From the NCBI GenBank assembly GCA_038245785.1, contig JBBRSB010000012.1:1-64000 (forward strand): a stretch of 64,000 nt of DNA. The letters are read 5' to 3'. The DNA comes from Gloeobacterales cyanobacterium (GTDB lineage Bacteria; Cyanobacteriota; Cyanobacteriia; Gloeobacterales; PMM-0068). Of this stretch, positions 1 to 11,981 are shown in pieces; the first letter of the stretch is position 1; each line of letters begins with the position of its first letter. Position numbers and translations under genes: made by a program. Under the pieces are notes generated by a model. That model made no database searches and had not been told where the DNA came from. It saw nothing but the letters and a program-made list of their open reading frames with translations.

Positions 1-3
1 CTT

Positions 4-645
4 TTGTTGCTGACCTTTGGCCAATCTAATTCTTTATCTCAAATGAGTGAAAAACAGACACCGACCTTGGTGCAGCTAGAAGATGGCAAAGCAGTACGGG
101 TCGGAGCCATGGACTACAACGACCGTACACCACAGACGATTCGGCGTTTTGTGGGCGATACGATGACCATGCTGATGAACTGGAGCGGTACCCTTCCTCC
201 CACGAGCCCAGAAGAATCGAGAAATCCAAAACCAGACCCTGGTGTTTCTCTGGGGACGAAGAAAGTAGCGCAAGCTACCTGGCAGGCAGGCTTTGCTCTA
301 AGCGAAAACTTTCGGGGTGAATTTCTACAGCTAGTTGCTGACCTCATGCCTCAGGAAGTGTTCAAAGGGAATGCCCAAGCTGTTTTAGTCGTTAACTATA
401 TGTCTAACCCCACCAAGGTCGAGAATGGTAAATGGAAGATGAGCATGGTCGCCAATCTAATCATCTTTGCCAAAGGTGATAACGCTGGCAAAGCAATTTC
501 CTTCAATAAAGAAATTTTTGTCAAATCCGTAGAAGCTCCTAGAGTTCCTGCTGGAGCCTCTGAACTAGAAAAGGCAATCTATCAAGTCCGCCAGTCAGGT
601 CTAGAGATTTACGCTATTCGTGACCTCATTCGAGAGAACTTATAG
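4..645 (+). CDS. Cyanobacterial T4SS inner-membrane component, VirB8-like (5' part lies outside the window)
   Basis: PTLVQLEDG...FVGDTMTMLMNWSGTLP resembles proteins of cyanobacterial conjugation clusters; lies upstream of virB10-like and virD4. Confidence 0.6.
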   Translation: MLLTFGQSNSLSQMSEKQTPTLVQLEDGKAVRVGAMDYNDRTPQTIRRFVGDTMTMLMNWSGTLPPTSPEESRNPKPDPGVSLGTKKVAQATWQAGFALSENFRGEFLQLVADLMPQEVFKGNAQAVLVVNYMSNPTKVENGKWKMSMVANLIIFAKGDNAGKAISFNKEIFVKSVEAPRVPAGASELEKAIYQVRQSGLEIYAIRDLIRENL

Positions 646-955: not shown

Positions 956-2425
956 ATGGACCAGAAGTATGGTGACCAGACAAGTGGCAAGTCAAAACCT
1001 AATTTGAATCAGATGGCAAAATTAGTCGACCTTGAAACTATCTATGGGACTGAGTCTGCATTAGGTGGAGACCGTTCAGCGGCTCTGTCAGGCTTTGAAA
1101 ACAGTGACACAAGTGCAGAGGATAACTACAGCGCCCCTCCTTCTCTTCAAAAAGATCCTTACCAATCTCGAACTAAACAGCCGTTGTGGTCTAATCCTTT
1201 TGCTAAAGCTGGATTGGTTGGAACAGGAACCATGATTGCCGTGATTGCGACAAGTTCACTGCTGGGTGACATTACCAAAGAAACTGTAGCTCAACCAGTA
1301 CCTGAGAAACAGGAAGTAACTTCCTCCGCAAACATTCCTACTCCTGAAGAGGATAAAGGCAAGTTGTTAGCAGAGTTAGCGCTTGGTAAGCAACAGCAAA
1401 CCATATCTTCAATGAATAAGGCAAATCAGTCGATGTTTCCCAAACCAACATCTGTGGTTACTCGGCCTATGGTCCGCCCCATATCTTTTACCCGACCGAT
1501 TATTAGACAAGTCTATTCCGTTCCAGCCTATACACGGAGCGCTCCAATCCAGACTGCTATTTCCCAGAATATGGACCCGCAACAGCAGTGGCAAGCGCTG
1601 TCGCAAGCAGGCAGCTTTGGTCAAACTTCCAGCGGAGCCAATGGAATTGATAATTCTGGAGGATATAGGAACTTTTCCAATCCCAATCCGCAATTAGCCT
1701 CCCAAGTAACGAATAGCCCAGAGGAAGAGCCCCCGCTTTTGACAGGAAGATTACGGAGGTCCGTGATCACAGGCACTATGGCTCAGGGTTTGCTAGCAAC
1801 ACCTGTGATTTGGGAAGGCGCTAAACGAGGAGGCTATCAAAGCGACGCTGACAATGCTTCGGGTTCTTCTCCTGATGACGAAGACCGTTTCATTATTCAA
1901 CTCACTTCCTCCTTAAAAGCTTCAGATGGCAGTGAAGCATTACTTGTAGGCACCCCACTGGTAGTGAAAGTACGTTCGGTTTCTGGCAGTGGCACGCTCA
2001 AGCTTTCTACAGTTGCCGTGATCATTGAAGGTGAAGAAACCTCCCTCCCCCCAGGAACAATCAGTATTCGGGCATCCGGTGGTGGTCCTCTAACAGCTCG
2101 GAACATGCAGGACCGAGGGGCCGAGATTGCTTCCAGTGATGCCGGTGTTTTTGCCCTGGCAGGGATTAGTAAAGCCGCGTCTCTCTTTACTCGTGCTCAA
2201 TCCACCACGACTACCTCAGGATTTAGTTCTACGACTTCTAGCCAGAATCCTCCCCCAGATATTTTGGCCGGAATTTTAGAAGGGGGAACCAATGCCATTG
2301 TTAGCCAGATCCAAGCCCGCAATGAGAGAGCTATTCAGGAATCCTTGGCAAGACCAGATATTTGGATGCTTGCTGCCGGAACCTCTGTCCAAGTCTTTGT
2401 GAATAAATCGGTACCAAACCTATGA
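956..2425 (+). CDS. virB10: TrbI/VirB10 family T4SS core protein
   Basis: N-proximal TM (AGLVGTGTMIAVIA), Pro/Gln-rich linker, C-terminal beta domain ending LAAGTSVQVFVN; GAGGAG RBS. Confidence 0.75.
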   Translation: MDQKYGDQTSGKSKPNLNQMAKLVDLETIYGTESALGGDRSAALSGFENSDTSAEDNYSAPPSLQKDPYQSRTKQPLWSNPFAKAGLVGTGTMIAVIATSSLLGDITKETVAQPVPEKQEVTSSANIPTPEEDKGKLLAELALGKQQQTISSMNKANQSMFPKPTSVVTRPMVRPISFTRPIIRQVYSVPAYTRSAPIQTAISQNMDPQQQWQALSQAGSFGQTSSGANGIDNSGGYRNFSNPNPQLASQVTNSPEEEPPLLTGRLRRSVITGTMAQGLLATPVIWEGAKRGGYQSDADNASGSSPDDEDRFIIQLTSSLKASDGSEALLVGTPLVVKVRSVSGSGTLKLSTVAVIIEGEETSLPPGTISIRASGGGPLTARNMQDRGAEIASSDAGVFALAGISKAASLFTRAQSTTTTSGFSSTTSSQNPPPDILAGILEGGTNAIVSQIQARNERAIQESLARPDIWMLAAGTSVQVFVNKSVPNL

Positions 2426-4569
2426 AAAAAATCTGCGCACTATTGGCACTCAGCGTTTTTGTGGCACAAGTTGCTCAGGCTAGTCCTGTCCATAGCATCT
2501 TTGCTAGCCAAGCAGAGGGCAAAGGTGGACAACTGGCCAGCGTCGTTTTATGGCCTGGATACGGCACAAACTTGAATCTGATTCCAACGGGAGAAACAGT
2601 CAAGAAGGCCTGGCTAGATGACCCTTCTCGCGTCGCCATTGATTTTGATGGATGCTTAGGACACAGTGCTGGCAACAGCAGCGGAGGTGCGGATGGCTGC
2701 GGTGCTACGGTAATTCACCTAAGGCAAATTACCGGCGTGTCCTTCCCTGGCTTAGTCAGTTCTGCTAATTCCACTACCTTGCTCACTTTAATTGCAGAAG
2801 GTCCCCAAGGAAGAAAACTCTACCAATTCAAGGTTGTAGTGGGGAAAGGGACACCCGAGTACAACACGATGACTATTCAACCGGACTCTCAAGGGACACC
2901 CTATATTGAACTAGGGTTGCGCAAAGCCACCTTAGAAGATGTCCAGAAAGGGCTGACTATTGCTGAGTCCAAGAAATTAATTAGTCGTCGGGATGGGGCC
3001 TGGAGCAAAGTCCAAAACTTTCTAGCTCAAGTCCGAAATGGAGAATCGATCAATACTGCAGCCCAAGTGACTGGGGTCAATATGGCCATCATCACGAAGC
3101 TGGCTGAGTTAGGAACGGCAGAGCAGATGGCTCCCATGGCGTTGCCCTCAATCCCTAAACAACCTGAGATTGCACCACTACCATCTATCAAAACAGAGGC
3201 AGTCAAGCCAGCCATACTCCCAGTAACGGAAAAACCACTTCCTCCAGTAGAACGACCAGTCGTTGAGGCCTCGATATCAATTCCTGTTGTTGCTCCTATC
3301 AAGCCCTTAGCTAAACCCCTTGAGATTATTACTAAGGCTCCAGAAGTGGCTCTTGTCTCGGTAAAAGGGTTGAGCAAACCAATAGTGGCAAGCAATAAAA
3401 CAGATGTTGGCTATTGGCTTTTGGACAAAGGTCTAGCTGATTCTGAAGCGTGGTCTAAAGGCACAGATAGTCTGGATTATCAAGTCTTTTTTGACGTTCT
3501 GCAACGAGGGAAAGAAACAGGAATTTCATTCTCAGAAGCCCTAAAGATGGCTCAACGCCTCAGTCGCGTTAATGATGAAAGACTAGGTTCCCTTACTAGA
3601 ACATTAGCAGGAAGACGGATGGCACAGAAAAAAGAACAGAGTGCACCGCTAGCTTCACCCATTCCAGTAGTTAAAGCTATTGCTGCTATCTCTGCAAATA
3701 CTTCGCTTCCCCAGACACCGCTCCTAACACCAACTATAGAATCCACAGCTAGCTTTAAAGTCAGTACAGATAGACCCAGTGAAATTCTTGCACGTTTCCA
3801 AATTCCGATGAAAGAGGGAGGTGTGATTACCGCAGACAAATTATTAGATGTGCAACAGCGCATTTGGAATTGGAAAAAAGGAGCATATCGCCAGAAGTTA
3901 GGTAAATTTATAGCAACTTTGATTACTTCTCAAGGAATAGACAGAGAGCATTCTCTCCAGACCGCAGTGCAAGAATCTGGACTCTCCCTCAATGATGTAC
4001 AGTATTTAGCTAAAGCTTCTCAGTCGAAGGCCTCAGCTAATCAAAATTTTCCTGCTGAGCCTAAGCAGCTTGCTTCGTCCCCAATACAAGTACCCAGCAC
4101 AAAGACGATTTTGAGTCCTCAGCCAAACTTAGTATCAAAGTTCACTTTACCTACTACTTTAAACACTTCAGAAAAGAAAGTACCTTCAGCAATAAAGCCA
4201 GTTTTTACTACTATAAAAGTCACAACAGGCGCTAATCAAGAATCAATAGCTATAAATTCTGAAAAAACAGTAAAAATAGGATCTTTGGGCAGTACAGCCG
4301 ATACTCTTGTTAAGTTGAGAATCCCTTTGAAAGATGGGGGCTCCATCGGGGCAGAACAACTCTTGACCGTTCAAGAGAGAATCTGGAATTGGAAAGGGGG
4401 CTCAGTCCGCAAACAGTTAGGTAGCTTTATTGCAGCACTAACTGCTTCTGCCGCTCAAGGCGATGAAAAAGCGATCGAAACAGCAGTTAATCAGTCAGGG
4501 TTGTCTCTCAATGAAGTGCAATATCTCCTGAGCAAGACGATCACCCAAACTGTTTCTTCTAAAGAATAG
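2422..4569 (+). CDS. Secreted T4SS-associated protein (VirB9-position) with duplicated C-terminal helical domains
   Basis: Signal peptide MKKICALLALSVFVAQVAQA; LWPGYGTNLNLIPTGETVKKAWLDDPSR motif of cyanobacterial conjugation clusters; ATGA overlap with virB10. Confidence 0.6.
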   Translation: MKKICALLALSVFVAQVAQASPVHSIFASQAEGKGGQLASVVLWPGYGTNLNLIPTGETVKKAWLDDPSRVAIDFDGCLGHSAGNSSGGADGCGATVIHLRQITGVSFPGLVSSANSTTLLTLIAEGPQGRKLYQFKVVVGKGTPEYNTMTIQPDSQGTPYIELGLRKATLEDVQKGLTIAESKKLISRRDGAWSKVQNFLAQVRNGESINTAAQVTGVNMAIITKLAELGTAEQMAPMALPSIPKQPEIAPLPSIKTEAVKPAILPVTEKPLPPVERPVVEASISIPVVAPIKPLAKPLEIITKAPEVALVSVKGLSKPIVASNKTDVGYWLLDKGLADSEAWSKGTDSLDYQVFFDVLQRGKETGISFSEALKMAQRLSRVNDERLGSLTRTLAGRRMAQKKEQSAPLASPIPVVKAIAAISANTSLPQTPLLTPTIESTASFKVSTDRPSEILARFQIPMKEGGVITADKLLDVQQRIWNWKKGAYRQKLGKFIATLITSQGIDREHSLQTAVQESGLSLNDVQYLAKASQSKASANQNFPAEPKQLASSPIQVPSTKTILSPQPNLVSKFTLPTTLNTSEKKVPSAIKPVFTTIKVTTGANQESIAINSEKTVKIGSLGSTADTLVKLRIPLKDGGSIGAEQLLTVQERIWNWKGGSVRKQLGSFIAALTASAAQGDEKAIETAVNQSGLSLNEVQYLLSKTITQTVSSKE

Positions 4570-4604: not shown

Positions 4605-6245
4605 ATGCCAGAGCTATTTTATCAACTACGAGCAATACTGCTTTCTTCCAATGGATTATTATTAATAACCTGTGCAGTTGGCCTTGGCGCTATTTCTCTC
4701 TATGACAACCGTAAGAGTAAACTGGCTACGAGTCGCTGGAGCAATAGTAAAGAAAAGGGCGTCGCTCGTAGACAAGCCCAATACCAAATGAAGGAACGTC
4801 AGCGTAATGCTGTTGCGCTCTATGTTGGTAAACCAACCATGACTCAGTCGAGTAATCTCTACATTCCGGATGCTCAAAGAGGGGTTGCAGTCTGCGGTGG
4901 ACCTGGCTCTGGTAAAACATTCTCAGTGATTGACCCAGCCATTCGCTCTGCTATTGACCAAGGCTTTCCTACCATTGTTTATGACTTTAAATATCCTACG
5001 CAGACATCACGTATTGCAGGTTATGCAGCCAAGGCCGGCTATGAAGTGCGAGTTTTTGCACCAGGCTTTGAGGAATCTAGTGTCTGTAATCCATTAGACT
5101 TTTTGCGGGATGAAACGGATGCAGAAACTGCCCGTCAAATATCGGTAGTCCTCAATAAAAACTTTAAATTATCTAGCCAAAATACGGAGGATGCTTTCTT
5201 CTCAGTAGCCGGAGACCAACTGATTGAAGCAGTATTGATGCTTGCTAAAAGTACACCCTATAAAGATGTAATGATGTGCCAGTCCATATTAAGTATGGAT
5301 AGCTTAACGCAGCGATTACAGAATACTGAATTGAACTATTGGGTTAGAGCTAGTTTTGGCCAATTGCTTTCTGTTGCAGACTCAGAGAAGACGGTTGCCA
5401 GCATTATTGCTACTGCCAATAATGTCTTTACTCGATTTATGAAGAAGAATATTTTGGGAGCTTTCTGCGGTCAATCTACGCTCCCTATTGACCTAGAAGG
5501 TAAGCAGCTTCTGATCATTGGAATGGATAGGGAGAGACGTGATGTGGTCGGACCTTTATTAGCTACTGTTTTACATATGATTGTCACTCGCAATGTGGTA
5601 AAAAAGCGCAAAGACCCCTTGATTCTAGCCATAGATGAATTGCCGACTTTATACTTACCTTCTTTAAGCCAATGGTTGAATGAAAATCGAGAAGATGGAT
5701 TATGTACCATCTTGGGATTTCAGAATCTAGTTCAGTTAGAGAAGGTCTATGGTAAAGAACTTGCAAGGGCTATTGTTGGGGGCTGTGCGACTAAAGCGAT
5801 CTTCAATCCCCAGGAATATGATTCAGCTAAGTTATTTAGTGACTTCTTAGGGGATGAAGAAATCCATTATCGTCAGAAATCAAGAGGACGTAGTGGTGGT
5901 CAATCTAATGTAAGTACTTCTGATCAGGAAAAAACGAGAAAACTCTTTGAAGCAAGCCAATTTTTGAAACTCCCTTCCGGAAAGTGTATTCTCATCAACC
6001 CTGGCTATAGCAATGAAAATGAATCATCAATGCCCATAGAGCAGAAGGTGAAAATACCGCCAAGAGATTTAAAAGCCTTTAAGAAAAGTGAGCAGGAATG
6101 GGAAAAAGTAAAAGAACAATTAAAACGAAGTAGTGGTCAGAAATCGCCTAGTACAGAGGAATTAAAAAGGAGATATATAGCTAGTAATAGTCTATATCCT
6201 CTGCCAGAAAATAAATTTGAGGAGAATTTTATGAATGCTTTGTAA
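4605..6245 (+). CDS. virD4: Type IV coupling protein VirD4/TraG
   Basis: N-terminal TM, Walker A GGPGSGKT, YDFK, Walker B ILAIDELP, LGFQ motif. Confidence 0.9.
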   Translation: MPELFYQLRAILLSSNGLLLITCAVGLGAISLYDNRKSKLATSRWSNSKEKGVARRQAQYQMKERQRNAVALYVGKPTMTQSSNLYIPDAQRGVAVCGGPGSGKTFSVIDPAIRSAIDQGFPTIVYDFKYPTQTSRIAGYAAKAGYEVRVFAPGFEESSVCNPLDFLRDETDAETARQISVVLNKNFKLSSQNTEDAFFSVAGDQLIEAVLMLAKSTPYKDVMMCQSILSMDSLTQRLQNTELNYWVRASFGQLLSVADSEKTVASIIATANNVFTRFMKKNILGAFCGQSTLPIDLEGKQLLIIGMDRERRDVVGPLLATVLHMIVTRNVVKKRKDPLILAIDELPTLYLPSLSQWLNENREDGLCTILGFQNLVQLEKVYGKELARAIVGGCATKAIFNPQEYDSAKLFSDFLGDEEIHYRQKSRGRSGGQSNVSTSDQEKTRKLFEASQFLKLPSGKCILINPGYSNENESSMPIEQKVKIPPRDLKAFKKSEQEWEKVKEQLKRSSGQKSPSTEELKRRYIASNSLYPLPENKFEENFMNAL

Positions 6246-6310
6246 GAGAAAAATAGCATTGTTGAATAGTGTATTGGGAAGAAAATTATAAATTCAGGAG
6301 AACTACCGTA

Positions 6311-7387
6311 GTGAAATTGAAAAACTTGTTCTTGAGTAGTTTTGTAGGGCTGGGTTTACTCGCTTCCCTAAGTACAATTAGTTTGCAGACAGCTAAAGCT
6401 AGCGACACAATAGAAAAAAAAGCAGAGAAAAGCTTATTTGTCATTAATAAAGATGGCAAATACGGTTACATAGACCAGACAGGTAAGGTTGTTATCCAGC
6501 CACAGTTCACTAGCTCTTCTCCATTCTCTGATGGCTTTGCTCTAGTATCAAAGGGTAGTAAGTACGGATATATAGATTCAACTGGAGAGCTGATAATTCA
6601 ACCTCAATTTGATGATGCGCATCCATTCTCGGAAGGCTTAGCTCCAGTTAAAGTCGGCGATAAATATGGCTACATTGACTATACAGGGAAAGTTACTATT
6701 CAACCTCAATATGACCTGGCTGGTCCTTTTGAGGATGGATTGGCATTTGTTGAAGTCAATAGACGTATTGGTTATATCAATAAAAAGGGTGAAATGGTAA
6801 TTAGCCCTAAATTTGCCACCCTATGGCCTGAAGATGAAGATGATCCTTCCTTTTCTGAAGGATTGGCTCGAGTACAAATCGGTAGACAACGTGGCTATAT
6901 CAATACAACTGGAAAGTTAGCTATTAAGCCAACTTTCCAATCCGCACGTAGATTCTCCAATGGTATGGCAGCTATCAAAGTTGATGGCCTTTGGGGATAT
7001 ATTAATAAATTAGGCAAACTAGTTATTCAGCCAAAGTTTGATTCCGCTAAATTCTTTTCTGAGGGTTTAGCTGCAGTGTCTATCAATGGAAAAGAAGGGT
7101 ACATTGATAAAACAGGAAAATTTGTCATCAAGCCCCAGTATTCTATTGCTGAAGAGTTTTCTAAAGGATTAGCTCAAGTCAACATTGGAGGTGTGCAATA
7201 CCGCGTAGGATGGGAAGGTGGACAGTGGGGATATATAGATAAATTCGGTCGAGAAGTCATCCAAAAGAAATATGACGAGGCTGGTACATTTTATGGAGAT
7301 TTAGCACGAGTAGAAATAGATAATAAGTATGGTTATATCAATCAAAAAGGTAAATATATATGGGGGCCTGTAGAACTTTCTGAATAA
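6311..7387 (+). CDS. Secreted WG-repeat (KWG) protein; candidate immunity protein
   Basis: Many K-[YW]-G-Y-I-D-x-x-G...F-S-E-G-L-A units; Sec signal ending AKA; AGGAG at 6296-6300 supports GTG start at 6311. Confidence 0.85.
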   Translation: MKLKNLFLSSFVGLGLLASLSTISLQTAKASDTIEKKAEKSLFVINKDGKYGYIDQTGKVVIQPQFTSSSPFSDGFALVSKGSKYGYIDSTGELIIQPQFDDAHPFSEGLAPVKVGDKYGYIDYTGKVTIQPQYDLAGPFEDGLAFVEVNRRIGYINKKGEMVISPKFATLWPEDEDDPSFSEGLARVQIGRQRGYINTTGKLAIKPTFQSARRFSNGMAAIKVDGLWGYINKLGKLVIQPKFDSAKFFSEGLAAVSINGKEGYIDKTGKFVIKPQYSIAEEFSKGLAQVNIGGVQYRVGWEGGQWGYIDKFGREVIQKKYDEAGTFYGDLARVEIDNKYGYINQKGKYIWGPVELSE

Positions 7388-7449
7388 TATTTTGATCTAG
7401 ATATTTGATTTCGCGTATCGATACTTATCAACTTTTGGAGAATTAAGGG

Positions 7450-8670
7450 ATGCTAGACTTTACTAACGAGCAGAAACAAACAAGTGCTTTTGCTTTTGCA
7501 TTGCGCTGGGAGGGTGGATATGTGAATCATCCTAAGGATCGTGGAGGAGCGACTAACTTAGGGGTTACACAATTGGTCTATAACAAATATCGCCAGGACC
7601 AGGGCCAACCTGTTCAGACAGTCAGAAACATAACTAAGGAAGAAGCAAAGAGTATATATATTCATGGTTACTGGAATAAAGTTCAAGGAGATCGGTTGCC
7701 GACATTGACAGCCATTTCACTTGCAGACTTTGCTTATAATAGTGGGCCGACTCGTGCCATCCACGAGATGAAACGCTTCTTGCGCGACAATGGATATGAT
7801 ATTCCAATGACTGCTGAAGGTAATGCTGTAAAGCATGAGAGATTGGATTCTGAAACAATGGCAGCAGTAAAGGATTATGTCTCTAAGCATGGTGATGAAA
7901 AGTTAGCACGGGGCATTACTCTAGAACGAAGCCAATTCGTAAAAGCGATCGTTAAGGAAAAACCAAGTCAAGGAACTTTTCTAGATGGTTGGAATAATCG
8001 CATCGATGCTCTAGAAGTGTATATCCATAAATTGAATTCTGAAAAAACACAGCCTACTCAAAAAGTAACGTCAAATTCGACGCATCAATCTCAGACAGAT
8101 AATCTGCCATCACTTTCAGCAGAATCCCAAACTTTTGCTCAGGCGAGTCAGATGATCTTGGATAAGCGGGGACATTTAGAAGGGGATACTCAAGTTTATC
8201 GAGGGTATACCTATACTTTCCAGAAGCAAGCAGATACTCTGATAACCCAAAAGCATGGTCAGGAAATTTTTAAACAGGTTGGTAGCCAGGTTGTCACAGA
8301 CCAGGTAACTCCGGTGGACATGAAAGTTCTGCATGCTGTTACCCAAAATCTAGAAAAAAGTGAGCACTTGGTTAAAGATTTCGCTAAGGACGTTCAGCTA
8401 ATTCTAGATAAGCGGGGGCATGTAGAAAATGGCACCCAAGTATTCCATGGCAATACTTATACTTTTGAGAAAGATGGAGATACTTTGACAGTTCAGAAGA
8501 ACCAGCAAGAGATCTTTAAACAAGTTGGTGACCGCGTTGTTCATACTCAAGTGACCCAGCAAGATTTGGGAATACTGGATAATGTTGCCCAGGCTTTAGA
8601 GCAAAAAGGATCGCATACTCCTGAAGCCAACCAGCCTAAAACTCCAGTTGGTGCAAGCTTGGAGCGTTAA
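7450..8670 (+). CDS. GH108 family lysozyme with PG-binding helix and two tandem C-terminal repeats
   Basis: EGGYVNHPKDRGGATNLGVT GH108 signature, DFAYNSGP, FLDGWNNRI; no signal peptide. Confidence 0.9.
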   Translation: MLDFTNEQKQTSAFAFALRWEGGYVNHPKDRGGATNLGVTQLVYNKYRQDQGQPVQTVRNITKEEAKSIYIHGYWNKVQGDRLPTLTAISLADFAYNSGPTRAIHEMKRFLRDNGYDIPMTAEGNAVKHERLDSETMAAVKDYVSKHGDEKLARGITLERSQFVKAIVKEKPSQGTFLDGWNNRIDALEVYIHKLNSEKTQPTQKVTSNSTHQSQTDNLPSLSAESQTFAQASQMILDKRGHLEGDTQVYRGYTYTFQKQADTLITQKHGQEIFKQVGSQVVTDQVTPVDMKVLHAVTQNLEKSEHLVKDFAKDVQLILDKRGHVENGTQVFHGNTYTFEKDGDTLTVQKNQQEIFKQVGDRVVHTQVTQQDLGILDNVAQALEQKGSHTPEANQPKTPVGASLER

Positions 8671-8710: not shown

Positions 8711-8741
8711 TATTCCCAAATAATAGGTGTGAGATAAATTG

Positions 8742-9899
8742 ATGAAACGGAAAGTATCGCTCTTGAGTCTAGCCGGAGCCTTATTTATTCTGACGGCTAC
8801 CCCTGGAATGACTCAGTCTCTTGGGTATAACTCGGTGCCGATTACACGATATAAAGGGGCTGCTATACCTGACTTCCAAAAAATTACCCTTGGCGGTCTC
8901 CCTCCTTTGACCGACAGTGGATCTTTTACCATTCCTGGTTCTCGAACCGTTGTCTTTAGACCTGGAGATAGACCCGTCAATGTGTTAACTCTTGGAAGTC
9001 TGAAAGATATTGGTGCTCCTAACTTAAACTTGGGTAGGGTTAGCCAGCTCACAGGCATTAATCTAGCAGACCAATCCCTAGCGAACTTTCCCCTCCTCAA
9101 AACTCAAAATGTTGGTAACTTGGTGGATGCTATTCCCGGTTTAGGCAACTTACCTATCCGAGAAGTGCAGCCGATTATGGACCTTTTACAGCAGAACAGC
9201 CCAGGGCAGAGTGGTTTGGGAGGCTTTGGTAATTTAGGAAGCCTAGGACAGGCTACAACGGTTTCTCAAGCAATTGAGCTAATTCCAGGATTTAAAAACG
9301 AAGTTCTTGGCAAACTGAATCTAAATGCTTACTCTCTACTTTCCTTAGATGGCATCACTAATGCAGCTTTAGGCAAATTTGGCGGAGCCTTCTCTGCAGA
9401 AATCAATAAGTTTACTGGTTTAGATAAAATACCTCTTTCTAAATTTCCTATTCCCCTTACCTTTTCAGGTGTTGTGGGAACGGTAGATGTAGTCTATGGC
9501 CCCAAAGAAGCAAGGCGAATGAATACGATTACAGGCAGCGACCAAGAAGGATTTAATGTTGCCTGTGCTCAACAATCTTGTTCCTATATTGAGTTGAGCG
9601 GTATTCCCTATGGGAAGCAATGGATTTCAGGAAAATCTCAGCAAGTTAGCGGTGGATTTGGGACTTTGAAGGCGCTGAATGGAGGTAAAGAACCAACCGG
9701 GAGACTGCCTTTTGGCGATTCTTTTAAGGTTGCACTTACAAAAGTAACAGAGTCTCAAGGAACTGCAGATTTTGGTGCCTATTTTCGTATATGCGCAACC
9801 CTACCTTGGGGAGAGTTTACCTGTTCGCCCTACTTTATTGGACCGGTTCCCTTCATTCCCTCAGTTCAAGAGAAAGATCCGATCTTCTTAGGACCCTAG
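8742..9899 (+). CDS. Secreted protein typical of cyanobacterial conjugation clusters
   Basis: Signal peptide; Leu/Pro-periodic middle; C-terminal CAQQSCSYIEL, GKQWISGK, GKEPTGRLPFG, FRIC...CSPYFIGPVP. Confidence 0.55.
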   Translation: MKRKVSLLSLAGALFILTATPGMTQSLGYNSVPITRYKGAAIPDFQKITLGGLPPLTDSGSFTIPGSRTVVFRPGDRPVNVLTLGSLKDIGAPNLNLGRVSQLTGINLADQSLANFPLLKTQNVGNLVDAIPGLGNLPIREVQPIMDLLQQNSPGQSGLGGFGNLGSLGQATTVSQAIELIPGFKNEVLGKLNLNAYSLLSLDGITNAALGKFGGAFSAEINKFTGLDKIPLSKFPIPLTFSGVVGTVDVVYGPKEARRMNTITGSDQEGFNVACAQQSCSYIELSGIPYGKQWISGKSQQVSGGFGTLKALNGGKEPTGRLPFGDSFKVALTKVTESQGTADFGAYFRICATLPWGEFTCSPYFIGPVPFIPSVQEKDPIFLGP

Positions 9900-9950: not shown

Positions 9951-10904
9951 CTACGGGTTAATTTTTCTCAGCAAGTCAACGGTTTCTTGATAACGATTTT
10001 TATCACTTAGGGAAAGAAATAATTTTGCTGCTTTTTGTAGATCAGCCGTAGCACCTTGTTTGTCATCAAGCTGAACACGCGTATTTCCTAAATTGAAATA
10101 AGCATTGGCAAGTTCAAGCTTGGGGTTGGCATTCGACATTCGCCTGGGATCACTTTTGCCATTTCTCCGAGAACTATCGATTGAATTGTTCTGAGAGTAG
10201 CTGGACCTGTTTTGTCTGGGATTCCTGATTGGATTTGGGCCGAGACTCTGACCATCTCTTTGCTTAAAATGGTCTTCAGCCTCTTGATCATGTTGAAAGC
10301 TATCTATGATGCTCCGCTTAAGATTTTCGATCGCGCTTGGCTTGTTACTAAGAGGATTACGGAACCAACCCTTCTTCTTATAGCTGTTATAGGCAGCAGC
10401 GAACTCAGGATCTAGACGGAGGGCCTGATCAATATTTAGTCTTGGTTCCTCTGCTACTTCCCACTGATTACTAGACTGTTTGATATTCTTTGCAGACTCT
10501 CGGTTAATCTTATTGGCCACAGGACGGAGCAAGATATTAGAAACCAGGATGGCCAGTGAACCAATGAAGGCTTGAAATACAAATCCAGCCCCAGTCAAAC
10601 AACCCAGGGCCGCCGCACACCATAGGGTTGCGGCAGTATCTAGCCCACGAACACTGATTCCTTCGCGGAAGATTACTCCTCCTCCAAGAAAACCAATTCC
10701 AGAGACGACCTGAGCGGCAACACGGGTTGGACTGGAATCTCCCGGCGTCATAACGGATAGCATCACAAACATAGCGGCGCCAGTCGATACAAGAGCATTG
10801 GTTCTTAGTCCTGCCCCTCGTTGTCGCCACTGTCTTTCTAACCCAACGGTCCCGCCTAACAAGAGAGCAAGCCCAAGCCGAGCAGAGAATTCCAACCAGG
10901 TCAT
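9951..10904 (-). CDS. mgtC: MgtC/SapB family protein with C-terminal TPR motifs
   Basis: GLERQWRQRGAGLRTNALV, RVAAQVVSGIGFLGGGVI; TPR-like AYFNLGNTRVQLDDKQGATADLQKAA. Confidence 0.85.
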   Translation of the reverse strand: MTWLEFSARLGLALLLGGTVGLERQWRQRGAGLRTNALVSTGAAMFVMLSVMTPGDSSPTRVAAQVVSGIGFLGGGVIFREGISVRGLDTAATLWCAAALGCLTGAGFVFQAFIGSLAILVSNILLRPVANKINRESAKNIKQSSNQWEVAEEPRLNIDQALRLDPEFAAAYNSYKKKGWFRNPLSNKPSAIENLKRSIIDSFQHDQEAEDHFKQRDGQSLGPNPIRNPRQNRSSYSQNNSIDSSRRNGKSDPRRMSNANPKLELANAYFNLGNTRVQLDDKQGATADLQKAAKLFLSLSDKNRYQETVDLLRKINP

Positions 10905-11417: not shown

Positions 11418-11981
11418 ATGGTGGTGAGCCGTCCTGATGCACTTAAAGAGACTTGGCGCTTGCACAGTGGCCTGCCAGTGCTGCTTAGGACTCTCCAGCC
11501 AACAGACTTTGCGCTCCATAAACAGTTTTTATACAATTGCTCTCGAGCATCTATCTATCAGCGTTTTTTCCAGGTTGCCGAGCATAGGAAAGTAACGGAC
11601 CAGCAAATTGCTCGCTATACAAACTTTGACCAAACGCGAGAACTGGCAATTGTTGCTGTTCAGCATCCCGCTCAAGATCAGGAGCTAGGGGTGGCAAGGC
11701 TGACTCAATCAGATAATGGGCTTGCTGAATTTGCAGTCATTGTGGCTGATGCCTGGCAAAGGCAAGGACTTGGACGTAAATTAATTGAAAAGATTATTGA
11801 AGTCGCTGCCCAACTGCATGTTCGTTCCTTACAGGGCTATGTGCTCAGTGACAATAAGGCAATGCTCAGGCTGTGTCATCAACTGGGTTTTAAAGTCCGC
11901 TGGCTCATGGGAGAGGGCATATATCAGGTGCAGATGGATCTATCTGTATCCAGACCTTCTCTCTACCGTTCATCAAACTGA
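11418..11981 (+). CDS. Stand-alone GNAT acetyltransferase (Pat/acyl-CoA-synthetase GNAT-domain-like)
   Basis: AEFAVIVADAWQRQGLGRKL, VLSDNKAMLRLCHQLGF. Confidence 0.85.
   Translation: MVVSRPDALKETWRLHSGLPVLLRTLQPTDFALHKQFLYNCSRASIYQRFFQVAEHRKVTDQQIARYTNFDQTRELAIVAVQHPAQDQELGVARLTQSDNGLAEFAVIVADAWQRQGLGRKLIEKIIEVAAQLHVRSLQGYVLSDNKAMLRLCHQLGFKVRWLMGEGIYQVQMDLSVSRPSLYRSSN

Follow-up and report, generated by a model that had tools for sequence, protein, structure and literature searches.

An antibacterial type IV secretion system (T4SS) has been described in Xanthomonadales (X-T4SS, with its X-Tfe/X-Tfi pairs). It is chromosomal and without a linked relaxase, and it combines varied peptidoglycan-hydrolase heads (GH19, M23, SLT, glucosaminidase, and PG-binding) with one conserved C-terminal domain; a secreted gene lies upstream of each, one pair lies within the vir locus, and small genes encode the C-terminal domain only (PMC6536674). 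In Bartonella and other alphaproteobacteria, the BID signal, a four-helix bundle, is similarly a single C-terminal domain common to relaxases and toxins (VbhT, PezT/Zeta toxins, and Beps), frequently present more than once and with a short tail behind it, as set out in the available part of PMC6509941. For the cyanobacterial conjugative class MPF-C, typified by plasmid alpha of Nostoc PCC 7120 (pCC7120alpha), the sections of PMC4027160 drawn on here know of no experimental study and list no VirB1. Additionally, GH108 muramidases that lack a signal peptide are exported by holins (TtsA-like, or secretion activator, proteins).

The DNA analysed here (the window; positions 1 to 64,000 of contig JBBRSB010000012.1, assembly GCA_038245785.1) is from a Gloeobacterales cyanobacterium. 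Its initial annotation proposed that a virD4 gene, a WG-repeat immunity gene, and a GH108 muramidase effector form an interbacterial T4SS module. The locus and its relatives share these features with the X-T4SS, the small genes being P0099-P0101, except that a secreted upstream gene was seen at the loci of G000, G402, and G403 but not beside the orphan genes of six Gloeobacter-family genomes. In contrast, its machine is MPF-C, whereas that of the X-T4SS is the canonical 12-gene class A; the muramidase C-terminal domain (CTD) has a predicted helix-six strands-helix order and no PF20410 match, whereas the Xanthomonas domain (XVIPCD) is alpha-alpha-beta-beta-beta in the available text of PMC8740702; and the CTD is often tandem, the candidate inhibitor in the window has no lipobox, and there is one pair per genome here. 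As on MPF-C conjugative plasmids, a CTD-bearing gene follows virD4, but the locus is chromosomal and without a linked relaxase, and here that gene bears a wall hydrolase. Unlike the BID signal, the CTD is predicted to be alpha/beta, and its cargo would act on peptidoglycan rather than in the cytoplasm. Compared to the holin-exported muramidases, the catalytic family and the missing signal peptide are the same, but there is no adjoining holin gene, the CTD is an extra tandem domain, and the head is exchangeable. One further source, PMC13756078, was set aside because the "T4SS" in the portion seen denotes type IV pilus genes.

Gene content and setting of the secretion locus

The locus spans contigs C13 and C12, whose ends overlap by exactly 141 bp. 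Eight class genes of pCC7120alpha, together with VirB4 (52%) and VirD4 (54%), have homologues across the two contigs by BLASTP, in nearly the pCC7120alpha order. On the plus strand of C12, a VirB8-like gene (1..645) has its 5' end on the adjoining C13 and is 37% identical to its pCC7120alpha MPF-C counterpart; the VirB8 label is provisional, drawn from gene order and the part of PMC4027160 at hand. It is followed by a VirB10/TrbI-like core-complex gene (956..2425), homologous to the annotated TrbI/VirB10 of pCC7120alpha and with a PF03743 match under the cut-off (E 6.7e-7), and by a VirB9-like gene (2422..4569), of which residues 1-236 are 34% identical to the product of the pCC7120alpha gene after virB10. 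The VirB9-like protein has a long C-terminal extension with two more helical repeats (residues 445-536 and 617-714), and these repeats recur in four other proteins of the same genome. Three of those four have, by eye, a DnaJ-like N-terminus.

The coupling-protein gene virD4 (4605..6245) is 54% identical to its pCC7120alpha counterpart and matches PF10412, PF12696, and PF02534, with E values of 7e-31 for TrwB_AAD_bind and 5e-25 for T4SS-DNA_transf; its translation has the Walker A motif GGPGSGKT. Beyond the muramidase lies a conserved MPF-C gene with a signal peptide (8739..9899, plus strand), 38% identical to the pCC7120alpha gene beside virD4 and matched by 119 plasmid records. A gene for an LprI lysozyme inhibitor is present near the left end of the cluster. 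Promoter and terminator scans gave results at or below chance. The canonical class A set (VirB1-VirB11 and VirD4) was not found, as the VirB1, VirB5, VirB7, and VirB11 families had no match among the cluster ORFs scanned, and the locus instead fits MPF-C gene for gene; a T6SS sheath had no match over the cut-off. By gene content, this Gloeobacterales genome has a complete MPF-C T4SS in its chromosome, in agreement with the conjugation-type system annotated initially.

The genome is 98% complete in 255 contigs, and housekeeping genes surround the T4SS locus. No relaxase was found on C12 or C13: a TrwC match is present only on C49 and a MOBP match only on C86, the Mob_Pre, MobA_MobL, and TraI_2 profiles had no match in the genome, and its Replic_Relax search was run without a positive control. 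Similarly, none of the 12 tyrosine-recombinase matches in the genome, sought as an integrase at an element border, is on C12 or C13. In phylogenetic trees, VirD4 and VirB4 of G000, the same-genus genome G402, and G403 fall among plasmid systems (the VirB4 tree being a quick one with a midpoint root only); the trees are compatible with either one or two domestications for the chromosomal systems of these three genomes and of the Gloeobacter family. In genomes of the Gloeobacter family (f45), T4SS genes are divided among separate chromosomal sites.

The candidate immunity protein and the muramidase head

Two genes follow virD4 on the same strand, and all three ORFs were found as annotated. The WG-repeat gene (6269..7387; PF14903) is separated from virD4 by 23 nt, or by 65 nt if it starts at the likelier GTG at 6311, which is preceded by AGGAG; a further 62 nt separate it from the muramidase ORF (7450-8670). 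Signal peptides of both proteins were judged from hydropathy and by eye. The WG protein (WG_beta_rep, 349 bits, 8 stretches) has a basic-hydrophobic-AKA N-terminus with a best 11-residue hydropathy of 2.05 and no lipobox cysteine, consistent with the annotated Sec signal and with a candidate periplasmic immunity protein. Its gene has the lowest GC in the operon (38.5%). No second WG gene was found in this genome, and no WG gene at all in G402. The protein has no relative in the PDB by sequence, and no report of an immunity role for WG repeats was found in the literature. A search for WG homologues was dominated by generic repeat proteins, and the query itself was not among the matches.

The muramidase head, with a PG_binding_3-like subdomain, occupies 7450..8049 on the plus strand. 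Glyco_hydro_108 (PF05838) matches residues 15-99 (E 6e-26), PG_binding_3 falls slightly under the cut-off, and solved relatives include 7DNP (E 4e-19) and 6V40/6V3Z. The protein retains E21 and the EGGY..P.D.GG.TN.G.T motif, and an alignment of 63 sequences has 13 invariant columns; the EGGY motif, catalytic Glu, and PG_binding_3 subdomain place it, at the sequence level, in GH108. As annotated, no signal peptide was detected (best hydropathy 0.78), and because the stop-to-stop frame is only 407 codons, no upstream extension could supply one.

Structural modelling predicts that the WG protein binds the GH108 domain, as the initial annotation required of an immunity protein. The WG protein is placed on the conserved GH108 cleft with a score of 0.66, versus 0.01 for the best of three controls; with our own alignments, the 0.66 mark is a rough one here; among solved complexes, 116 of 157 attained it, compared to 2 of 215 mismatched pairs. 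Model runs share at least 83% of contacts, and partner pLDDT is at least 87. Of the 28 GH108 positions conserved at 90% or more, nine lie in the predicted interface. The WG contacts include two non-repeat insertion loops (185-194 and 309-317); on the enzyme, W20 is inside the confident interface residues and the catalytic E21 is outside them.

Exchange of heads on a shared C-terminal domain

The muramidase ends in two CTD units of 82 residues each (8122..8367 and 8368..8613, plus strand), which are 54% identical and thus bear out the annotated duplication. Unit 1 is a candidate T4SS export signal. A low-complexity tail (8614..8670) ending in LER and the stop codon follows, and a C-terminal [LMIVA]ER is present in 10 of the 13 hydrolase-CTD proteins listed, the exceptions being P0092, P0094, and P0098; the tail may have a role in export. 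The modelled CTD is alpha/beta (pLDDT 94). It had no Pfam or PDB-sequence match, Foldseek returned nothing at E <= 0.001, and the best VIA-align hit had Z 5.1 (rmsd 2.8, 65 aligned); fold searches and the Atlas left the domain unnamed, which does not imply a new fold. The XVIPCD profile PF20410 matched 0 of 1 genome at E 0.1, a cut-off that no control genome passed either, and the BID profile PF17841 had no match over the cut-off and none on C12.

Nine of the 14 genomes of the order matched in a search with the window CTD, and the same nine have virB4; the other five lack both. Only one CTD protein is present in the window's genome, which alone matched in a single-sequence search of 401 genomes of the phylum. 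A profile built solely from hydrolase CTDs matched the C-terminal end of a TrwC (MOBF) relaxase at 27 bits and plasmid proteins at 22-43 bits, versus at most 2.4 for shuffles. The CTD ends plasmid proteins encoded after virD4 and is also present on PIN-domain proteins; it was undetected on two MOBP-type and two MOBF-like relaxases, on MobV of pCC7120alpha, and on the relaxases of the window's genome. Because it co-occurs with virB4 and ends a MOBF relaxase and post-virD4 plasmid proteins, the CTD is probably an MPF-C export signal. The CTD is not homologous to XVIPCD, with which the initial annotation drew its parallel, and is not specific to effectors: plasmid-borne MPF-C proteins end in it as well. 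Several matches were rejected: one in G248 (E 0.0015) inside a PAS sensor kinase, one in L005 outside any ORF, the repeat proteins P0093 and P0097, a DnaB match on C15, and the plasmid match H1. Searches of viral contigs with the CTD, and of genome contigs with P0094, yielded no further locus; the A4 search returned only the contig of G402, and a metagenome scan gave a single short contig, whose CTD gene appears to be truncated.

Comparison of loci shows that 6246..8132, comprising the candidate immunity gene and the catalytic head, is an exchangeable cassette. In G402, the same operon has a signal-bearing PdaC/RsiV-like gene and a GH19-CTD gene in place of the WG and GH108-CTD genes; no DNA is similar between 6205 and 8133, versus 73-78% similarity on both sides. 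A metagenome run (X2) contains a contig joint from 6247 to 8133, and contigs of two other runs have loose ends at 6247 (X5) and 8133 (X4); the sequence of one metagenome loose end is identical to the linker in the GH19-CTD protein P0013. Bins without coverage in these runs were left out of the evidence. The RsiV-like protein of G402 matches 3CYG (E 1.6e-5), the structure that the lysozyme inhibitor RsiV resembles most according to the part of PMC5014341 consulted, which adds that not all RsiV-like proteins bind lysozyme. In P0013-P0018, CTDs 58-89% identical lie behind GH19, M23 plus PG-binding plus GH73, and VgrG3-like heads, and more distant CTDs lie behind SLT, M23-only, and GH46-like heads. 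Heads from at least seven Pfam hydrolase families share the CTD. The T4SS locus of G403 encodes two CTD proteins, each after secreted genes (WG and WD40; a lipoprotein), and a 312-aa protein of G403 gave no usable fold from its single sequence (pLDDT 32). The cultured relative Anthocerotibacter panamensis has the system with two candidate pairs.

In f45, six genomes have a CTD hydrolase at a distance from the T4SS genes; its head is of the M23 type in five genomes and GH46-like in the sixth. In the loci read, none of its immediate neighbours was seen to be a signal-peptide gene on the same strand. The M23-CTD version looks like a housekeeping gene, because its chromosomal neighbours stay similar across species. 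The variable effector/immunity pairs that the initial annotation proposed to survey are seen in part: a change of head is accompanied by a change of the secreted gene upstream, but the f45 orphans have no inhibitor neighbour.

Candidate function and alternatives

Overall, head and partner exchange in the sequences and the modelled WG-GH108 complex support the initial proposal, and the probable explanation is an antibacterial T4SS with an origin separate from that of the Xanthomonas system. A conjugation-derived MPF-C system fixed in the chromosome would have been put to interbacterial antagonism. The muramidase, having no Sec signal, would be synthesised in the cytoplasm, and its tandem CTD and LER tail, borrowed from plasmid MPF-C substrates, would recruit it to VirD4. 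On contact with a Gram-negative cell, it would be delivered to the periplasm of that cell, where it would cut peptidoglycan. The Sec-exported WG protein would block the enzyme cleft in the producer periplasm, as modelled, and so guard against leakage or attack by kin. Strains diversify, as the sequences show, when recombination places a new inhibitor and enzyme-head block after the virD4 stop and before the CTD; each new head thereby inherits the candidate export signal. Counting against a weapon, the window's genome has one CTD protein versus several pairs per X-T4SS species (PMC6536674), the f45 CTD hydrolases are orphans, most relaxases tested lack the CTD, and only the assembled loci of G000, G402, and G403 pair a hydrolase-CTD gene with a secreted gene upstream.

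It is unlikely, though less so than the other alternatives, that the hydrolase is a VirB1-like remodeller that opens the producer's own peptidoglycan for the channel, via or beside the T4SS, and is only restrained by its secreted neighbour. Such a role is vacant, since MPF-C has no recognised VirB1 in the available text of PMC4027160. The missing signal peptide, which the initial annotation took to set the muramidase apart from VirB1-type hydrolases, does not do so by itself, because the VirB1 proteins of the X-T4SS likewise have none (PMC6536674). Orphan M23-CTD genes conserved in five f45 genomes may keep self-wall remodelling as an ancestral role. GH108 relatives also include holin-exported self-wall muramidases, with NF040573 scoring 55.8 bits against a cut-off of 240, and those of the 6V40/6V3Z type presumably have a TtsA-type role. 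However, an assembly factor is not expected to swap unrelated heads together with a secreted partner between strains of one genus, and an enzyme dependent on the T4SS for export could hardly help build it. G000, G402, and G403 each have a different head, and the f45 T4SS loci that were read have none, so that, as initially supposed, the hydrolase is not an invariably conserved VirB1 equivalent. Nor is it a general growth hydrolase, because five of the 14 order genomes lack virB4 and the CTD together.

The machine is a standard conjugative one, its VirD4 and VirB4 group with plasmid systems, plasmid proteins bear the CTD, and MOBF and MOBP relaxases are present elsewhere in the genome. It could thus mobilise DNA in trans, with the hydrolase co-delivered to loosen the recipient wall or acting as a VbhT-like toxin secondary to plasmid transfer. 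This is very unlikely: neither relaxase has a detectable CTD or is on the T4SS contigs, where no integrase of the tyrosine-recombinase type was found, and the f45 T4SS is split over chromosomal sites. Least probable is contact-independent release or a non-bacterial target, that is, lysis of nearby cells for nutrients in the medium or mat, or GH19/GH46-like attack on fungal or algal chitin or chitosan. The GH19 and GH46 families do include chitinases and chitosanases, and PMC13600162 reportedly describes a bacteria-killing T4SS that is employed against fungi. However, the GH108, GH73, M23, VgrG3-like, and SLT heads and the PG-binding domains indicate peptidoglycan, the GH19 head is best matched among solved structures by phage endolysins, and a producer would require a periplasmic inhibitor only where the enzyme endangers its own wall.

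A broader account, with about even chances of holding, is that a cyanobacteria-specific MPF-C T4SS was domesticated in Gloeobacterales into a polymorphic antibacterial weapon, independently of Xanthomonas and Bartonella. In that account, the CTD is a general MPF-C translocation signal (on relaxases, plasmid cargo, PIN-domain toxins in Nostocaceae-like genomes, and wall hydrolases), and WG_beta_rep is a muramidase-inhibitor scaffold with specificity in its inserted loops. If the weapon reading is true, a further conjugation machine would have independently become an antibacterial weapon, in the earliest-branching order of oxygenic cyanobacteria. The CTD would give the MPF-C class, so far uncharacterised, a candidate export signal, so that MPF-C substrates could be listed across cyanobacteria, and the very large WG-repeat family would gain a candidate function. 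The loci would also provide a natural swap series of enzyme/inhibitor pairs.

The three-gene module and its predicted complex

As the initial annotation had described, virD4, which encodes the coupling protein (4605-6245), is followed by genes for a WG-repeat protein (6269-7387; translation probably starts at 6311) and a GH108 muramidase (7450-8670). The predicted difference in export signals was also borne out: the N-terminus of the WG protein shows a basic-hydrophobic-AKA stretch that lacks a lipobox cysteine, and the muramidase has no hydrophobic N-terminus, its 407-codon reading frame leaving no room for a 5' extension. The GH108 catalytic motif and Glu21 are intact. Among GH108 relatives, 6V40/6V3Z have a TtsA-type role. 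The duplicated C-terminal domain consists of two 82-residue units (CTD; residues 225-388, 54% identical), for which searches of Pfam, NCBIfam, and PHROG gave nothing convincing.

Complex prediction, one of the checks initially proposed, favors binding. The GH108 domain (residues 1-200) with the WG protein (residues 50-372) scored 0.66, compared to 0.01 for the best control; in calibration, 116 of 157 solved complexes attained the score mark, as did 2 of 215 mismatched pairs, counts that are rough here (own alignments). At least 83% of contacts were common to the runs, with partner pLDDT of at least 87. Of 28 GH108 positions with at least 90% conservation, nine (T40, Q41, N97, G99, G124, F177, G180, W181, and R184) are among the confident contacts, as is W20, which adjoins Glu21. 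The tightest contacts on the WG side come from the two loops that interrupt its repeats. A sequence search of the PDB found no WG relatives, which makes it less likely that the prediction reproduces a solved complex. The model supports binding of GH108 by the WG protein.

Further along, the gene for an MgtC-family membrane domain fused to a TPR-like C-terminal part (9951-10904) runs convergently toward the T4SS operon's end. GNAT genes of similar look, judged by eye, lie near the effector here (11418-11981) and in G412 of the Gloeobacter family (L023:10244-10774), perhaps a trace of older synteny.

Exchange of the enzyme and its secreted neighbor

Gene order in the same-genus genome G402 is that of the window, but the interval between virD4 and the CTD is occupied by a PdaC-domain gene with a signal sequence, followed by a GH19 head. 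The flanking DNA is 73-78% similar to the window as far as 6205 and again from 8133 onward, and no similarity remains in between; no WG gene was found in G402, compared to a single one in the window's genome (G000). The PdaC-domain partner matches 3CYG, the structure that most resembles the lysozyme inhibitor RsiV, although one RsiV-like protein tested in that study did not bind lysozyme (PMC5014341). In Anthocerotibacter panamensis (G403), the gene for a 903-residue M23/PG-binding protein, which carries three CTDs, is preceded by one WG and one WD40 gene. Additionally, virD4 is followed there by a lipoprotein gene and a gene for a 312-residue protein with one CTD (L020:6093-7506), a candidate second effector pair. 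The head of the latter is papain/NlpC-P60-like, with apparently Ser where Cys would be expected; Atlas places it near TseH/SPM/papain-like domains as a lead only (TM 0.63 to SPM).

Metagenome contigs from four of the 12 runs listed, drawn from three studies, were compared at 80% likeness. In run X2, one contig runs along WG-GH108 and another connects 6247 with 8133, its shorter side being 47 letters long. In run X4, a contig departs from the window ahead of 8133, and translation of the 30 letters at this loose end gives exactly the linker of the GH19-CTD protein P0013; in run X5, the loose end lies after 6247 and is unlike both assembled loci. These joints coincide with the junctions found independently in G402, although at 80% likeness other organisms are possible sources. 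By sequence comparison, the enzyme head and the upstream secreted gene are exchanged together at this locus.

The CTD as a putative export signal

Full-length GH108-CTD proteins make up 12 of 89 homologues (query counted), and six match the C-terminal half only (58-89% identity), with GH19 (3), M23+PG-binding+GH73 (2), or VgrG3-like (1) heads. A representative CTD search gave 13 matches, two of which, repeat proteins, were rejected as CTD proteins and dropped. Further CTD proteins are M23-only, SLT+PG-binding+M23, GH19-like+PG-binding, GH46-like, or CTD-only. None of the 17 checked, including the window's, has a signal-like N-terminus; the only 11-residue hydropathy score above 2, in P0090, was rejected as a signal, being a short valine run within its M23 domain. 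Ten of 13 hydrolase-CTD proteins inspected end in [LMIVA]ER. Small CTD-only ORFs (89-191 aa; L075, L080, L090, L091, L093, and L026 in Gloeobacter-family genomes; P0099-P0101), some conserved across species, recall the XVIPCD-only genes of Xanthomonas and could be regulators or decoys.

The window's CTD alone detects 9 of 14 genomes of the order, and virB4 was found in the same nine, although kin genomes are not independent; the five genomes without matches are 91-95% complete but assembled in fragments, and one of them has virD4-virB10 pieces. Phylum-wide, the CTD profile matches 17 of 301 genomes. To exclude profile drift, a profile was built solely on 31 units taken from hydrolase-bearing proteins and run against 18 proteins: 11 gave 17-70 bits near their C-termini, compared to ≤2.4 for shuffles, one scored weakly at 7.7, and the other six did not score. 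Four of these six are relaxases, two MOBP-type and two MOBF-like, of which Pfam confirms one and the rest were labeled by eye. Among the 11 that scored are a TrwC relaxase-helicase with 27 bits, a plasmid-borne Strawberry-notch helicase of Gloeobacter morelensis (G406; 38), an ORF directly 3' of a Mob_Pre relaxase (35), two proteins adjoining virD4 (22 and 43), and a PIN-domain protein (30). Genes just 3' of virD4 on three annotated plasmids also score, weakly on pCC7120alpha, whose MobV gave no score. The predicted fold (helix-six strands-helix, pLDDT 94) has no clear PDB match, and its topology is unlike XVIPCD (PMC8740702) and BID (PMC6509941); profiles of these two domains did not match either. 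The CTD looks like the MPF-C export signal, and we infer that it binds VirD4.

Chromosomal-looking HTH_17 + PIN_3 pairs in family-f7 cyanobacteria, in which the PIN protein ends in a CTD (L095, L096, L099, L100, and L102; genomes G240, G180, G065, G208, and G050), are candidate T4SS-delivered or domesticated toxin-antitoxins.

The secretion machine and the role of the locus

The first 141 bases of the window's contig (C12) are the end of C13, and together the two contigs hold homologues of eight class genes, VirB4, and VirD4 of the reference MPF-C locus, which lies on Nostoc PCC 7120 plasmid alpha (pCC7120alpha). Housekeeping flanks include citrate synthase, a group 1-type sigma factor, psbO, infB, and nusA, and none of the 12 integrase hits falls on either contig. 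The genome's relaxases lie elsewhere (MOBF on C49, MOBP on the 4-kb contig C86), no CTD was found on either, and searches for Mob_Pre, MobA_MobL, and TraI_2 found none. C86 (3954 bp) also carries ParA-like and MobA-like genes and resembles a Bacteroidota conjugative transposon; it is possibly a contaminating contig. G402, G403, and G406 belong to the same order, Gloeobacterales, the species names of G403 and G406 coming from identical proteins; in a quick VirB4 tree without a real root, G000, G402, and G403 group together (support 97) among plasmid systems, apart from the Gloeobacter-family clade.

Several neighboring genes were also observed. A signal-bearing LprI lysozyme-inhibitor gene on C13 (L001:8132-8590), ~1.2 kb past the first T4SS gene toward the cluster's left end, is a possible orphan immunity gene. 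Amid the MPF-C genes, a 235-aa secreted protein (L001:1627-2334, C13), 51% identical to that of G402 compared to 70-92% for neighboring genes and not found in three plasmid loci, is possibly a pilus-tip or kin-recognition factor. In the VirB9-like protein (2422-4569), a helical domain occurs twice within a long extension. Four other membrane proteins encoded in G000 (C4:160564-161727, C11:37575-38624, C49:6822-8036, and C19:19493-20974) terminate in the same domain, and three of these have a DnaJ-like N-terminus by eye.

Variable candidate effector/immunity pairs, for which a survey was initially proposed, are present in G402 and G403, whereas hydrolase-CTD genes of the Gloeobacter family are orphans: M23 in five genomes, near bioF/rplY-type genes, and GH46-like in G412. 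No secreted same-strand neighbor was seen in the loci read, and this arrangement is in keeping with a housekeeping or VirB1-like role; these six genomes have chromosomal-looking T4SSs split into separate pieces. X-T4SS VirB1 likewise has no signal peptide (PMC6536674). The single CTD protein of G000 is a further point against antagonism, and the paired exchange seen in the same-genus genome G402 is a point for it.

No description of an antibacterial T4SS in cyanobacteria was found in the full-text literature (main texts, few subscription journals), in agreement with the initial statement of novelty. The proposed likeness to the Xanthomonas killing systems is supported for the candidate effector/immunity organization. 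Because the machine is MPF-C and the C-terminal domain and inhibitor scaffolds are different, the locus is not a member of the X-T4SS family; it works like an X-T4SS effector/immunity module built outside that family, and interbacterial antagonism is its probable role.
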